Assembly: GCA_943788175.1 (NCBI GenBank)
Contig: CALSPG010000005.1
Location: forward strand, 480,001 to 544,000
From: an uncultured bacterium
GTDB lineage: Bacteria; Fidelibacterota; Marinisomatia; Marinisomatales; UBA1611
Direction of reading: 5' to 3'
DNA: 64,000 nt
Shown here: positions 24,001-30,000 of the stretch, piece after piece
How the letters are laid out: every line of letters begins with the position of its first letter
How positions within the stretch are numbered: the stretch's first letter is position 1
Position numbers: made by a program

Positions 24001-27000
24001 ATGTATGATGACTATAACCCAAATAGTAAAATTTCACCATATCTATGGACCTCAGCCTTTTTGATTCCTGCTTGTACAGCATATTATCGTTATGATGCTG
24101 GAAAGCATTTCCCTTCAGATTTGGTCACAGGTTATATTGTTGGTGGTGCTATTGGAATGCTTGTTCCAAAATGGCATAGAGAAAATAGCAATGTGAATGT
24201 TTCATTATCATTGCAATCAGCTGGCAAAATTAAAACTCGCCTATCCTATAAGTTTTAATTAATATACTGATATATAAAAATAAGAATTATGAAAATATCT
24301 ATAGAATATTGTAACGTTTGAAACTACCTGCCTAAAGCCTCCAGTTTGGAGGAATATTTAAAAGGGAAGTATGAAGTTGAAATAGAGCTTATATCAAGTG
24401 GTGGTGGCGTGTTTGAAGTATGTCTTGAAGATAAGCTTATTTTTTCAAAAAAATCCCTGGGTCGATTCCCTGAGCATAGTGAAATCGACGATCTAATCAA
24501 TCATAGCTTAGTTTAAGCCATATCAACTCTTGACTTGTAACGCTTTTCTTTTATAAACTACTTACGAGCAACTTACGAGTAAATAATATGTTTAGATTAA
24601 AAAGTAAAAAACAAAGAAAAAGTTCACTCATAGTCCTAAGGGCGATCAATCGCATCAATAGGTATGAGATGAATGAAAACCATTTATATCGCGCTTATGA
24701 TTCATTAGGGCGGAAACAAGGCAGCCATTCTTTAACGTCATGAAACCGCTGTCCCTAAAGCAGAAAAAGTTTTTGAACTTCATAAAGAATTTTACTCTCA
24801 TGCAAGGTGAAGCGCCAGCGTATGATGAGATAATGTCTGGGCTTGGTTTTAAATCTTTAGGGACAGTGGATTGGTATGTTAAAACGCTTGAGAAAGAAGG
24901 TCATTTATATCGTACGAAAGGCTCTAACGGCAAACGGGCATTAACATTAACGCAAGAGCACGCCACGCATCCCGAGGCTTGTTTGCCGTTATTGGGTCTG
25001 ATTGCCGCAGGAGAGCCTATTGAGGCATTAGAAACGCCAAATAGTGTTACAGTTCCACTTTCTTTGGTTCATCCTGATAATTTTGTCTTACAGGTTCGAG
25101 GACAATCAATGATAGATGAACAAATTCAAGATGGTGATTATATTGTAGTTAAAAAAACAGCTACAGCTAGATCAGGGCAAATTGTGGTTGCTCTCATTAA
25201 TGATGAAGCAACGTTAAAGTGTTATGTCCCCAAATCAAATCATATAGAGTTACACCCTCGCAATCCTAGTTTTCCAGTTATTACTATTAAAGAGACAGAT
25301 AGATTTAATATAAACGGCGTGCTTTTATATTCTTTTCGAGAATATCCTAGTTAATACACGTCATGAATGTTATCTGAAGTATTTTATCTCAATTTAGATT
25401 CGATAGAGTTACAAGCGGAAAGGACAGTTGATCCAACTTTAAAAACGCGCCCTATTGCTATCATATCTTCTGCCGATAGTAGTGGTACGATTATATCTCT
25501 TTCAAACGAAGCAAAGGAAGAAGGCTTGTACGAAGGGATGAAAGTTTCTATTGCAAAAAAGAAAAAACAAATGGTTCAATTTTTACCATACAATCGTGCC
25601 TTGTATCAGCGTGTAAATAAATATACCTATGATACACTTTCTAAGTTTACACCTATTGTAGAACCAAGTGGGATGAATGGTTTTTATATGGATATGAAAG
25701 GTATGGTTCGATCTCAAGATAGTATAAAAGACTTTGGTTTGTCTGTTATTAAAAAAATAGAAAGCCGTATTAGTCTATTTTCAGTAATAGGAATTAGTGC
25801 GAATAAACTTGTTAGTAGAATAATTACTAATGTTGTTCATGAGAGTATCCACGAAGTTCATTTTGGATTAGAAAATCAATTTCTTGCTCCTTTAAGCTTT
25901 AATGTCCTGCCAACGGCTAGGCTCAAACCTGTACGTAAGATACTACACTTTCTATTCATAGATAAAATTTTCCAACTACAAATCTTGACTAAATGTGCTG
26001 AAGATTTTCGAACATTGTTTGGCGTAAACGCTGTTCAGTTAGCAAACGAAGCAGTTGGTAGAGATACATCATTAGTCAGGCCGCCTATATTCAAGGATCA
26101 TTTGCTAGAACAATTAGTTTTGCCTAAAAATACAAACAATCAATATGTTCTTTTATCTGCTGTGCAAGATTTATCGGAAAAAGTAGCATTTCAATTGAGG
26201 AAGCGTGGACAAATAGCAAAAAGAATTAGGCTGGAGGTTCACTATGTTGATGGCTATAGTTCTAGTACAATTGGAAGTGCTAATTACCCGGATGATATTT
26301 CGATCAGTAAAGAGTGCAAAAAGTTGTTTGCGAAGGCAAATAATAGGCGTGTTTCAATAAGGAGTATTTTATTAGACCTGAGCCAATTCAAGCCCTATAC
26401 TGAACAGAAGAATTTATTTTTTGACTCTGAGTCACGTGATATGGAAATATCTAGAGCCGTTGAAAAAATACGTCGTAAATATGGTATAACAATTATAAAA
26501 AAAGCGAACGTATTACATGCATTGGGCTAGATTATAATATTTGTCATGTAATCCATGGCATTATTTTTTTATGTTTATCAATTTAAATATTCATTCAGTG
26601 TATTCAAAAATGCAGAGTACGCTTACACTTAAAGACATAATCACGCTCAGTAAATCGCAACAGAGTATTGCTTTGACGGATGTTAATACGGTCAGAGGTT
26701 TTATAAATTTTGTTCAATTTTCTCAATCAAATAAAGTTGCACCGATTGCTGGTGTTAACCTCATAACAAGTATGGACGAGGTTGTTATCCTTGTTGAGAA
26801 TGATATCGGATATGAAAACATGTGCCGGGCAATAACTAATTACTACGTAAACCCCATTTGTTCAGTTGTTGATATAATAAAAGAAAATTCAAAAGGAATA
26901 TTTGTTCTAGCTTACCAATCATCCTTGATTGAACGCTTAAAAAATATAATACCGGAGGATCGTCTTTTTATTGAACTGAGGCCAGGTGTCGAAGAGTCAT

Positions 27001-30000
27001 TTGCGAGAAAGTTATCTAAAAAACACAAACTTGAAATAATTGCAACGGGCGATGTTTATTATGAAACACCTCTAGATCATCTTTCGCATAAAACATTAAG
27101 AGCGATTGATCTTAACAGTACTTTAAATCGTTTGAATGGCTGCGATTATAAAAGTAAGGAGCATTGGTTTAGGAAAGAAACGGACATGTTTGATCTTTTT
27201 CCAAATAGCCTGGAGGCAATAAATAATAGTTATTATCTAGCAAAAAGATGTAAAAATAAATGGTCATTTATTAATACTATTTTCCCAGGACTATCATTGA
27301 AAGATACTTTTCAAGCAAATAAAAAATTGAAAGAATATGCTTATCAAGGAGCGGCAATACGTTATGAAAAGATAACAAATGATTTGATTAATCGCATTGA
27401 GTCTGAATTAAGATTAATTACTCAAAAGGGCTTTGCTCCTTATTTTTTGATTGTGAATGATATTGTTTCTCAAACTAAATCAACTATTGGAAGAGGTTCT
27501 GCCGCAGCCTCGGTTGTTAGTTACTGTTTATTTATTACACAGGTAGATCCTATGAAGTATAACTTGTCATTTGATCGTTTTATTCATCCAGAAAGAATTG
27601 ATATGCCAGATATCGACATAGATTTCCCCTGGGATGAGCGAGATAGGATTATTGACTATGTTTTTAAGAAATATGGAAATGAACGTACTGCAATGGTTTC
27701 GAATCAGGTTTTTTTAAAACCAAGGTCTACAATTCGCGAGGTTGGGAAAGTTCATGGTCTTTCAAATGAGCAAATTAAAAGTGTTACAAAACGAATAAAG
27801 TCATTCAGTTCTAATAAAAAAATAATAAAAAAAGTTAAGAATAATGCTGTCTTGGATATTGATGATAACATGAAGAATGTTCTGCAAATTAGTGAGAGCC
27901 TATTAGGTGTGTTCAGACATTCTTCTGTCCATCCAGGAGGTGTTGTGATTGTTCCGGATGAAATATGTAAGTATGTCCCTGTTTTGAAAGCGCCAAAGGG
28001 AATACAAATTGTAGAGTGGGAAAAAGATCAAATCGAAGATTCAGGCTTACTTAAAATTGATCTTCTTGGTAATCGTAGTTTAGCAGTTGTACGAGATACA
28101 ATAAAACGAATTAATCTCCAATCGAGTACAGATAAAATCCCCTATATTAATTATCATAAGATACAGCCTCTAGAAGATTCCAAAACGAGAGAGATTATGA
28201 GAGCGGGTAAAACAATGGGCGTTTTTTATATTGAAAGCCCTGCCGTTAGGCAGTTAATGGCGAAGGCTAAAGTTGTCGATTTTGAACATATTGTTATTTT
28301 CTCATCAATCATTCGCCCCGCAGCTAATCGTTTCACGAATTTAATGTTAGATAGAATACATGGACAAAAGTGGAGTTTAGTTCATCCGGATTTAATTTGT
28401 TTAAATGAGACATATGGTATTATGGTTTATGAAGAACAAGTATCTATGGTCGTTATGATAATGACTGGATTGGGTTATGCAGAAGCAAATAAGTTAAGAA
28501 AAGTAATCTCTCGTAACTCTGATGAGCATAAAATAAATAATTGGAAAAACACATTTTTTAAAAACGCATTCAAACGAGGTTACAAACCTGATACAATTGA
28601 TCAAACCTGGCAAATGATATCTTCTTTTAAAGGTTTTTCATTTTGCAAACCTCATTCCGCTTCTTATGCAATGCTTGCTTTTACCTGTGCATATCTTAAA
28701 ACGCATTTTACTGCAGAGTTCATTTCCTCAGTAATATCAAATCAGGGTGGTTATTATTCTTCATATGCCTACATGAGTGAGGCAAAACGTTTTGGGGTAG
28801 CGATACACACACCAGATATCAATGACAGTAAATACGAATGGATAGGAGAGAATAATCAGATTTTAATGGGTTTCATGAGTATCAAGCGCTTAAAAAAAAA
28901 TACAGTGAAAGTAATATTAGAAAATAGAAAGTCTGGAAACTTTTTATCTTTAGAGGACTTTTTATTTAGAGTGAAAATTGATTTATCCGATGCAATGGCG
29001 TTAACAAATGCGCAATGTTTTAAAAAATTATGTCACGATAAAAGTCATAGGCAAATTGCATATATAGTTGCTGAGTTTCATCTTAACGGTAAAGATAACA
29101 ACGAGCCTTTGAACCGTGCTCCTATTATAGAAGTACTCACAAAATATGAAATATATAGGCTGGAAATTGGTTCCTTCGGTTATCCTGTCAGTCTCCATCC
29201 CTTAGAACCATATCGTTCTTTTGTGAGTAAGCGGATTGGTCTTGCTAAAGATATACCAAAAAAGTTAGGTCAATATATCTATCTCTTAGGAGTTTACGTT
29301 ACGCGTAAAGAAACACAAACGAATCAAAATGAACCAATGCAGTTTTTAACCTTAGAAGACGAAACAGATACGTATGAGTGTATTTTGTTTCCGAAAGTGT
29401 TTGCTGAGTTTGGTGATATTATGAATTGGGAAACATTATTTATTATTTATGGAAAAGTGGAGGCCTCTTTTGGAGTATACAATATTAATGTTGATAAAAT
29501 GGTTAGTTTAAGAGAATGGGTAAAAAAGACTAAGTCAGTTAGTTTTGCATGAGAGAGCAGTTATCAATCCTAACCTCTTCTAAAAGGTCATCATAACCGA
29601 GACATCGCCCTTTAATAGATATCTTGTCTGCTAGCTTTAATTTAGGGTCAATAGTTTGAGCAGGATTAAAAGAGCAAACGGTATTGCCATCGAGAATAAT
29701 CATATTAGAACTTATTTCTTTAATTGTTCCATTTATTAATAAGACTTTATCTAGAAAACTTGTATTAGCACTTGACACATCAAGCTGATACTTTTGAAAA
29801 AGTTCGGTGGATTGAATTGTGTACTCAAAAGAAGCTTTAACAAAATTTTTATGCGGCTTATTGAAGCTGAAGTAGACAATAGCAAAAATTACTACGGCAG
29901 AGAAAAAAGTAAATCCGATTAATATTTTTTTATTGTTCATTATTGACAATTATAGTCATTGTCATGTTTATTGCTTACGTTTATATGCGGACAAATTAAA

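Follow-up and report, generated by a model that had tools for sequence, protein, structure and literature searches.

A direct repeat as the predicted LexA operator of the main Marinisomatota LexA clade, and a small gene upstream of lexA

In the window analysed here, which is the whole stretch of 64,000 nucleotides taken from one Marinisomatota genome (G000), lexA stands in an operon with an imuB-like gene and dnaE2, behind a promoter that carries a direct repeat and a short open reading frame (uORF). Which protein reads this repeat, how far does its regulon extend, and what is the uORF? For this abundant, mostly uncultured marine phylum, a candidate SOS operator serving its main LexA clade would be of practical value, since damage-response genes could then be called from sequence.

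A preliminary description had taken the repeat for the likely LexA operator and had concluded that LexA controls only its own mutagenesis cassette. As judged from sequence comparison, the main LexA clade of Marinisomatota very probably uses this repeat as its operator (SOS box), because stand-alone umuDC and imuB-dnaE2 operons have it in front of them as well. As these SOS genes are unlinked to lexA, the case is stronger than the one originally made. The restriction to a single cassette, on the other hand, applies to G000 and its family (f1) but not to the phylum, where lexA-recA, lexA-dinB and stand-alone umuDC are also headed by the repeat. No new kind of system is involved.

The operon and its promoter

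The features of the locus are collected in Table 1.

Table 1. Features of the lexA operon and its promoter (positions in the window).
Feature	Position	Strand	Remarks
-35 hexamer TTGACT	24530..24535	+	operon promoter; consensus scan, predicted
-10 hexamer TAAACT	24554..24559	+	abuts the operator; consensus scan, predicted
Predicted operator ACTTACGAG-CA-ACTTACGAG (general form ACTTACGAG-N2-ACTTACGAG)	24560..24579	+	copies 24560-24568 and 24571-24579
uORF	24588..24743	+	encodes a small lineage-specific protein of 51 aa; its stop runs into the lexA start (ATGA)
lexA	24740..25354	+	intact; TIGR00498 155 bits (cut-off 111); PF01726 and PF00717 over cut-off
imuB-like gene	25367..26530	+	inactive Y-family polymerase; Pfam IMS and IMS_C
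dnaE2	26541..29552	+	second DnaE of the genome; Pfam; likely start ATG 26571

The direct repeat is indeed located behind the -10 hexamer upstream of lexA-imuB-dnaE2, as first described. It is 20 bases long, with a period of 11 bp and the core TACG-N7-TACG, and the window has no second match even when three mismatches are allowed (chance mean 0.01). Its reported singularity in G000 is borne out by a matrix scan of the genome, in which it scores 36.3 bits and the next independent site 12.7 bits; the top sites of ten shuffled-matrix runs (13.7-21.9 bits) all lie above this runner-up, and sites weaker than ca 13 bits are indistinguishable from noise in such scans. The recA, uvrA, uvrB and dinB genes of G000, each taken with 6 kb upstream, contain no operator-like site (at most 4.3 bits).

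The -35/-10 pair agrees with the consensus at 9 of 12 positions, with an 18-bp spacer. Relatives of G000 have a TTG-type hexamer at the matching place and TAATAT, TAAAAT or TATAAT as the -10. The T immediately 5' of the operator is invariant in 44 distinct sites, and the A five bases before it is present in 42 of them. Judged from the position of the -10, the operator would cover the transcription start. The uORF and lexA are each covered in part by RNA-library contigs from four studies, which carry no information on start, strand or level; one of them (X8) begins at 24565, which is not readable as a transcription start.

LexA of G000 has both the winged-helix DNA-binding N-terminus and the S24 peptidase domain (Pfam), and its gene is the only S24 gene detected in the genome. 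The Ala90-Gly91 cleavage site, Ser123 and Lys160 are invariant across 38 aligned rows, and the recognition helix reads S-L-G-T-V-[DNH]-W-Y. The two polymerase genes make up a mutagenesis cassette, in which a Y-family ImuB that is catalytically dead is joined by a second DnaE. The imuB product reads GMNGFYMD where DinB of G000 reads SLDEAFLD, and it contains a QxxLF motif, which we take to be clamp-binding-like, and a tail that resembles the N-terminus of RecA (probability 20.9% in hhalign, at E 0.001). The start of dnaE2 given in Table 1 is considered likely from the N-termini of relatives. The other full-length dnaE, on contig C5, is 26% identical to dnaE2; the NCBIfam models do not tell the two types apart here, as DnaE2 and DnaE both stay under cut-off. 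A search for ImuA in five genomes (NF033429) gave a single RecA-sized match in each, below cut-off, the one in G000 being recA itself. Cassettes without imuA are mentioned in passages of PMC9578287.

Distribution of the repeat and identity of its reader

The preliminary count of 26 carriers among 30 lexA upstream regions of the family is reproduced: 26 have an exact operator and one has it with one mismatch, all within 600 bp, while two more have it at 636-638 bp and one is lost at a contig end. When all 46 family loci are considered, G000 included, 44 have the operator and two are truncated by contig ends; both of these genomes carry it on another contig.

Across the phylum, whose genomes are incomplete and, where related, not independent of each other, 157 of 401 genomes carry the operator when two mismatches are allowed. 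The preliminary description gave 72 of 201 genomes, and 0-1 for the reversed control; the reversed control matches in 26 of 401 genomes here (counted from the table). The operator occurs in 149 of the 163 genomes with a best LexA hit of E ca 1e-52 or better, compared with 3/59 for more distant hits, 2/17 for weak hits and 3/162 for genomes with no lexA hit. A match is missing from 14 genomes with a close LexA, of which 12 were inspected: 11 have a variant box before lexA and one is cut by a contig end. Two matches are present in 11 of the 157 genomes, and 'once per genome' is not a general rule. The second matches in G253 and G259 were rejected as chance, since they lie within coding regions; the loose-pattern matches inspected in G143, G206 and G153 scored below 4 bits. 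What looks like a LexA-RecA fusion of 471 aa in G361 is an artefact produced by an N-gap.

The 41 LexAs of the operator group form one side of a branch with support 100/99 (100/98 with family f21 added), in a tree of similarity-chosen rows that has no proteobacterial or Firmicutes outgroup and no Balneolaeota LexA. The sharp identity limit proposed earlier (at least 50% against under 47%) does not survive: operator-bearing LexAs reach down to 46.7%, and repeats in the 11-bp register occur in several other LexA clades. In a genus with the changed helix S-V-G-T-V-S-W-Y, the box is altered in both copies at all four loci.

What, then, stands behind the operator? It heads lexA-recA in eight genomes (family f17) and lexA-dinB in G125, so the claim that recA and dinB lack it is valid for G000 and its family and not for the phylum. 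With the same -10 geometry it also precedes stand-alone umuDC in seven genomes and stand-alone imuB-dnaE2 in four. Never more than two promoters per genome carried it in the searches made. In a metagenome scan, 64 matches have a -10 immediately before them, and 58 of these have an SOS gene downstream (five of the other six have less than 400 bp of sequence), against 4 of the 58 matches that have no such -10. In a viral scan there were 62 matches, all of them lacking an SOS gene downstream, and at least 120 for the reversed control.

These data bear on the option that the repeat belongs to another regulator, or is a promoter or start-site element that serves SOS genes incidentally. Copy 1 does overlap the expected +1, a near-perfect site (G269:C77) has no recognisable gene downstream, and three genomes without a lexA hit have a match. 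Of these three, however, one has its site before imuB-dnaE2 in a genome that is 87% complete and another has it at a contig edge. The near one-to-one pairing with one LexA clade, the co-variation of box and LexA helix, the occurrence only before SOS genes and the register shared with EMSA-validated Balneolaeota boxes make this option very improbable.

It is equally hard to uphold that what LexA recognises here is a pair of short palindromes that overlap, TTAC-N2-GTAA, similar to the TTAC-N3-GTAA quoted for Bdellovibrio in literature passages. The commonest operator form includes TTAC-GA-GTAA, and the copy-1 pairs hold in 0.96, 0.93, 0.67 and 0.88 of 75 sites, but the copy-2 pairs reach only 0.41, 0.77, 0.84 and 0.88, against TACG kept in 72-75 of 75 sites at each position of both copies. 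In addition, the GTAA arm is free to vary (position 10 is T in just 53/75), and an asymmetric central G is conserved on one strand. Copy-to-copy identity is 0.93-1.0 at positions 1-7, in a set of sites collected with a direct-repeat pattern, which itself favours the direct-repeat reading.

For the direct-repeat LexA operator, the following mechanism can be proposed. A LexA dimer would bind two head-to-tail half-sites, TACG-N7-TACG, one helical turn apart, and, sitting over the transcription start, would block the promoter. Upon DNA damage, RecA filaments would trigger self-cleavage of LexA and the operon would be transcribed. In the family of G000 the sole operator promoter would drive uORF-lexA-imuB-dnaE2, with recA, uvrA/B and dinB outside the SOS response, which would therefore be cut down to damage-induced mutagenesis; in other families the same operator would act before lexA-recA, lexA-dinB, umuDC or a separate imuB-dnaE2. 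The near-invariant 9+2+9 site, with its natural helix and box co-variants, is a good substrate for the question of how a LexA dimer reads direct repeats.

Relation to known LexA boxes and regulons

A close likeness is to the Balneolaeota box TTACACATATTTTWTACATA, validated by EMSA (passages of PMC7739468), which is likewise 20 bp long, with, by our parsing, a 9+2+9 arrangement and an 11-bp period, and with AC at the identical core position. The letters differ, being AT-rich (ACATA) there and TACGAG here. Both regulons are centred on lexA, recA and translesion polymerases, but the Balneolaeota one is larger and, according to the same passages, also includes a helicase along with a radical SAM protein and an SOS peptidase.

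The alphaproteobacterial GTTC-N7-GTTC box, as given in passages of PMC8565304, PMC3323433 and PMC9578287, shares the direct repeat and the 11-bp period. Its GTTC aligns with TTAC of the present operator, which differs by its TACG core, near-invariant 9-bp halves and location behind the -10; the half-sites are head to tail as in that class, with TTAC/TACG in place of the GTTC core. The regulon of 1-2 promoters contrasts with the alphaproteobacterial one of recA, uvrA and many others, and the recognition helix S-L-G-T-V-N-W-Y is a further difference.

Intermediate forms exist. The lexA promoters of families f21, f4 and f22 have (G/A)TACG-type repeats in the same register (7/10 loci by eye); f21 also has GTAC-N7-GTTC, and the GTAC and GTTC forms are confined to neighbouring clades. 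In other phyla TTCG-N7-TTCG is an intermediate, in Gemmatimonadota and Acidobacteriota. The pattern T[AT]CG-N7-T[AT]C[GC], picked after a first look, is present upstream of lexA in 38/38 Gemmatimonadota (resampled mean 1.6), 8/27 Acidobacteriota (0.8; the other 19 have no match) and 3/3 Saccharimonadota (0.01). Acidobacterium capsulatum reportedly has a LexA motif of the GTTC-N7-GTTC type. The box of these other phyla is placed in the interval from -35 to -10, not behind the -10 as here; one f22 locus (L123) has both. LexA of G000 scores median bits of 124 against Gemmatimonadota and 117 against Acidobacteriota LexAs, both sets similarity-selected, and 95 against the best PDB chain. The operator may belong to the 11-bp direct-repeat SOS boxes as a diverged form; descent shared with GTTC-N7-GTTC is at most a possibility, given a tree whose rows were picked by similarity and which has no proteobacterial or Firmicutes outgroup. 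Passages of PMC7739468 argue that direct-repeat recognition by LexA arose several times.

As to novelty, the earlier term 'new LexA box' is justified for the letters, as far as searched, and not for the architecture, since direct-repeat LexA boxes of 11-bp period are already known. A literature search found no description of a Marinisomatota LexA box among the papers listed, and the listed papers that contain the 9-mer deal, by their titles, with unrelated subjects; CollecTF and RegPrecise, outside its scope, may hold a related motif.

Passages of PMC3323433 report cassette-only LexA regulons for several organisms, with imuA-imuB-dnaE2 as the sole SOS unit; there too lexA heads its own error-prone polymerase operon and recA and uvr stay outside. 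The G000 cassette differs in having no imuA, the only LexA of the genome and a small lineage-specific gene in first place. The mutagenesis cassette is also said to be the sole SOS unit of Bdellovibrio and of Pseudomonas LexA2. In Marinisomatota the regulon stays at 1-2 promoters while its content swaps among imuB-dnaE2, umuDC, dinB and recA. This agrees with the view, already published, that the core task of LexA is to hold back error-prone polymerases.

The small gene in front of lexA

The uORF is a real gene under purifying selection: it is found in 45 of 46 family lexA loci, its dN/dS is 0.24-0.26, and its product has an invariant V-x-R-A-x-x-R, in which V16, R18, A19 and R22 are encoded by all or nearly all of their synonymous codons. 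Its reported conservation is thereby secured. The label 'uncalled' has to be dropped, as the exact sequence is in the ESM Atlas and a search of 1.84 billion proteins returned 28 clusters, 27 of them of 42-73 aa and one a 171-aa protein with a 34-residue match. The product belongs to no family in Pfam, NCBIfam or the ESM Atlas, and neither Pfam, the Atlas nor the large search gave homologs outside families f1 and f13, where it is seen only in front of lexA. A helix is predicted for residues 14-45 (highest confidence 11-30); the C-terminal half is variable and in some loci shortened.

The uORF and lexA overlap, stop with start, in 38 of 45 loci. A Shine-Dalgarno-like (SD) word precedes the uORF in 29 of 44 loci and the lexA junction in one of 44; in G000 and three relatives of its genus the uORF has no clear SD and starts 5-8 nt past the operator. 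The uORF may thus bear the ribosome-binding site of the message and couple its translation to that of lexA, and the conserved helix would point to a further role at the protein level. The uORF is a concrete candidate for a new SOS modulator.

Two functions can be considered. The first, held with less than even confidence, is that of a cis-acting leader peptide setting LexA translation by coupling, possibly with a nascent chain that controls termination at the stop where the two genes overlap. The overlap and the missing SD of lexA speak for it, as do a C-terminal T-S retained with third-position variation and, in most loci, a Trp 12-13 residues from the end, a position that we take to resemble the TnaC spacing. 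However, the invariant residues are ca 30 residues away from the stop, the Trp is missing in the genus of G000, the overlap is absent in 7/45 loci, and the leader RNA shows no unusual fold (z -1.13).

The second, somewhat doubtful, is a protein accessory to the SOS switch or the mutasome, either made 1:1 with LexA, as a host-encoded counterpart of gp7 of phage GIL01, or standing in for the missing ImuA. Selection at the protein level, the invariant residues, the helix, the occurrence solely before lexA and the absence of ImuA from the five genomes agree with this. There is also a precedent in gp7 of phage GIL01, a small protein from a LexA-repressed promoter (passages of PMC4551915), which is phage-encoded while the uORF is chromosomal, and which is likened to it by context and not by sequence. 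Against it, most operator-carrying families run the same ImuA-less cassette without a uORF, the C-terminal half is variable or truncated, and homologs are confined to two families. Mimicry of the RecA N-terminus or the ImuB tail was not supported (hhalign probability 0.3% and 0.9%, with 20.9% for the ImuB tail against RecA as positive control).

A wider reading, speculative and in our judgement improbable, would make the uORF protein a chromosomally encoded partner, translated 1:1 with LexA, either of LexA itself or of the mutasome that lacks ImuA, which times a one-operon mutagenic SOS response, and would at the same time take the series TTCG, GTAC/GTTC, TACG, with the shift of the operator from between -35 and -10 to behind the -10, as the record of one direct-repeat LexA specificity evolving across several phyla.

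Finally, at one of the two family loci with the operator 636-638 bp upstream (L020), a GxxExxY-like gene lies between the operator and lexA.

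Promoter, operon and conservation of the box

The preliminary description placed a direct repeat right behind the -10 hexamer of a lexA-imuB-dnaE2 operon, and this is indeed its position (see the table). With up to three mismatches allowed, the 20-mer matches nowhere else in the window (0.01 matches expected). Since it adjoins the -10 hexamer, the box is predicted to cover the expected transcription start.

Features of the SOS operon and its promoter in the window
Feature	Position	Strand	Remarks
Rdx-family gene	24289-24516	+	directly upstream of promoter; in-frame TGA after C-N-V
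-35 hexamer TTGACT			18 bases before -10 hexamer
-10 hexamer TAAACT	24554-24559		adjoins box
Direct repeat ACTTACGAG-CA-ACTTACGAG (20-mer)	24560-24579	+	found by motif search
uORF, 51 codons	24588-24743		downstream of box; stop overlaps lexA start
lexA	24740-25354		TIGR00498 passed; A90-G91, S123, K160 kept
imuB-like gene (Y-family protein)	25367-26530		acidic pair of the genome's DinB absent
dnaE (dnaE2)	26541-29552		second full-length dnaE elsewhere in genome, 26% identity

The Rdx-family gene is probably a CxxU selenoprotein. The missing acidic pair and the distant second dnaE identify the last two genes as ImuB and DnaE2; DnaE types are not separable by NCBIfam alone. The ImuA model gave only one RecA-sized match, below the cut-off, in each of five genomes. 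Homologs of the LexA at 73-74% identity carry the source names Marinimicrobia/Neomarinimicrobiota, which fits the phylum Marinisomatota.

LexA was found in 45 of the 54 genomes of this family (f1), and 46 loci were read. The motif lies within 600 bp at no more than one mismatch in 42 loci and at 636-638 bp in two, and in L020 a GxxExxY-like gene separates the box from the uORF; the other two loci are cut by contig ends, with the motif on another contig in both genomes. GxxExxY genes have been inserted repeatedly in the SOS operon (loci L020, L053, L102, L113), as have other small genes (L069, L074, L112), either in the box/lexA gap or in the lexA/imuB gap.

In the phylum sample, 157 of 401 genomes match the motif at up to two mismatches (reversed control, 26). 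When all 401 genomes were also searched for LexA, the box proved to be in 149/163 genomes whose best LexA E value is about 1e-52 or better, in 3/59 with more distant best matches, in 2/17 with weak ones and in 3/162 with none; these counts include non-independent kin, and most genomes are incomplete. Twelve of the 14 close-LexA genomes without a match were read: 11 carry a variant box before lexA, directly behind a -10-like hexamer, and in the remaining one the upstream DNA is too short. The streamlined family f3 (37 genomes, 0.7-1.1 Mb) has no box, and its S24-type matches are weak at most, in 2/37 genomes.

Extent of the regulon

A scoring matrix built from 44 distinct sites was run over the 2.27 Mb of the genome. 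The window site scores 36.3 bits and the next independent one 12.7 bits, a score that each of ten column-shuffled matrices exceeds with its best site (13.7-21.9). The genome possesses recA, dinB, uvrA and uvrB, and in the 6 kb upstream of each the score never exceeds 4.3 bits. A loose '-10 plus repeat' pattern, which misses this genome's own site because its -10 is a variant, matched 44 times across the 54 genomes of the family (control, 21); 42 of these matches fall at the lexA promoter, the other two elsewhere. From these two scans, one box promoter per genome holds for the family, as far as an assembly that is 92% complete can tell.

The same claims do not extend to the phylum. Two matches occur in 11/157 genomes, and 20 of these 22 sites were fetched. 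In six genomes the second site stands before umuDC, and in one before a separate imuB-dnaE2; of the others, two fall within coding regions, one is at a contig edge, and one, near-perfect (L085:1010-1029, genome G269), has no recognisable gene behind it, which suggests a relic promoter or a small RNA. In all, the box heads a stand-alone umuDC in seven genomes and a stand-alone imuB-dnaE2 in four. It also precedes lexA-umuDC in six loci (followed in three by a gene that we take to be SRAP-like), lexA-dinB in G125 and lexA-recA in eight genomes of family f17, representative genes having been checked for these names. That recA and dinB lack the box is thus not a phylum-wide rule. In two sets of 74 and 42 genomes from other orders and classes, no genome gave more than two loose-pattern matches. 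In f17 (L057, L062, L064, L095-L097), lexA is flanked by a cinA-like gene on one side and recA on the other, and the RecAs have an altered N-terminal segment in which the usual FGKG turn is missing.

The metagenome scan covered at least 120 loci and gave 122 matches, among them a few duplicates. An SOS gene lies downstream in 58/64 matches with TA...T directly in front and in 4/58 without it. This recurrence of SOS genes behind the box is the best evidence that it is an SOS operator and did not simply come down together with lexA.

On AT-rich phage contigs, a near-perfect box stands upstream of a terminase small subunit-like gene (L390, L418, L383) or antisense, just past the major head gene stop (L393, L386, L400, L397, L371). 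It occurs in 5/31 capsid and 2/31 terminase relatives, all chosen by the pattern itself, and in the phage scan the reversed control matches more often overall than the box. A search of 251 phylum genomes for the phage terminase gave no match.

The repeat, the LexA clade and known operators

Among 75 distinct sites, which were chosen with the direct-repeat pattern, positions 4-7 (TACG) are conserved in 72-75 in both copies, while the bases needed for a TTAC-N2-GTAA palindrome vary. In one genus with the helix S-V-G-T-V-S-W-Y, the box is altered in both copies (4/4 loci). In the LexA tree, a branch at 100/99 sets apart the group's 41 LexAs (readable box in 40), and one at 100/98 these together with family f21. 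By eye, 7/10 loci of the neighbouring clades f21, f4, f22, f24 and f27 carry a repeat: GTACG-N6-GTTC behind the -10 in f21 and (G/A)TACG repeats in f4 and f22, with two pairs at the f22 locus (L123), the first in the -35/-10 spacer and the second behind -10; none was seen in f24 and f27. In f4, f22 and f27 (L116-L118, L122, L123), lexA directly follows a gene with a DnaA-like C-terminus, presumably DnaA by this motif. The f24 loci (L115, L119) encode a long-branch LexA with helix S-N-F-S-I-Q-K-K before an imuB-like gene, and a TACG-type box is absent there.

Of the 558 relatives that the neighbouring-clade LexAs have among named genomes, the best 80 were taken, and most of these belong to Gemmatimonadota and Acidobacteriota. 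Within 160 bp of lexA in these, T[AT]CG-N7-T[AT]C[GC], a pattern picked after a first look, occurs in 38/38 Gemmatimonadota (resampled mean 1.6), 8/27 Acidobacteriota (0.8) and 3/3 Saccharimonadota loci (0.01); other spacers give 0-8 of 38. In these phyla the repeat fills the -35/-10 spacer, whereas the Marinisomatota box lies behind the -10. The spacer of all 38 Gemmatimonadota loci (including L136, L141, L202) holds TTCGG-N6-TTCGG, a candidate SOS box of that phylum.

The 11-bp period is common to the Marinisomatota box, the published GTTC-N7-GTTC LexA box (PMC8565304, PMC3323433, PMC9578287) and the EMSA-tested Balneolaeota direct repeat, whose authors state that recognition of direct repeats arose more than once (PMC7739468). 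One origin is only a plausible reading, because the tree is without alphaproteobacterial, Balneolaeota and Firmicutes rows. According to PMC3323433, LexA can have the mutagenesis cassette as its sole target. In the literature searched, which did not extend to subscription papers, curated motif databases or supplements, neither the motif nor an SOS regulon of Marinisomatota is described. The announced new LexA box is very probably a LexA operator, new in sequence as far as these searches reach and known in type; the small regulon follows a known pattern.

The small ORF before lexA

The conserved ORF of about 50 residues reported between operator and lexA was recovered in 45/46 family loci. Across three distance bins its pooled dN/dS comes to 0.24-0.26, against 0.05-0.09 for lexA in the same pairs, which overlap. 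V16, R18, A19 and R22 are invariant in 42/42 distinct rows, duplicates and rows containing N having been left out, and are encoded by four, six, four and six different codons, respectively. The stop overlaps the lexA start in 38/45 loci, and an SD-like word precedes the uORF in 29/44 and the lexA junction in 1/44. The uORF is therefore a real, lineage-specific gene which, from its overlap and SD placement, very likely feeds ribosomes to lexA; its peptide may also act in cis or on a partner. In the 401 genomes, a profile search recovered it in 34/43 f1 and 7/10 f13 genomes, in every case at the lexA promoter; the only other matches were two borderline ones, inside long ORFs. The protein has no family in Pfam, NCBIfam or ESM Atlas; its relatives form 28 clusters, and its predicted structure is one helix (mean pLDDT 67.5).
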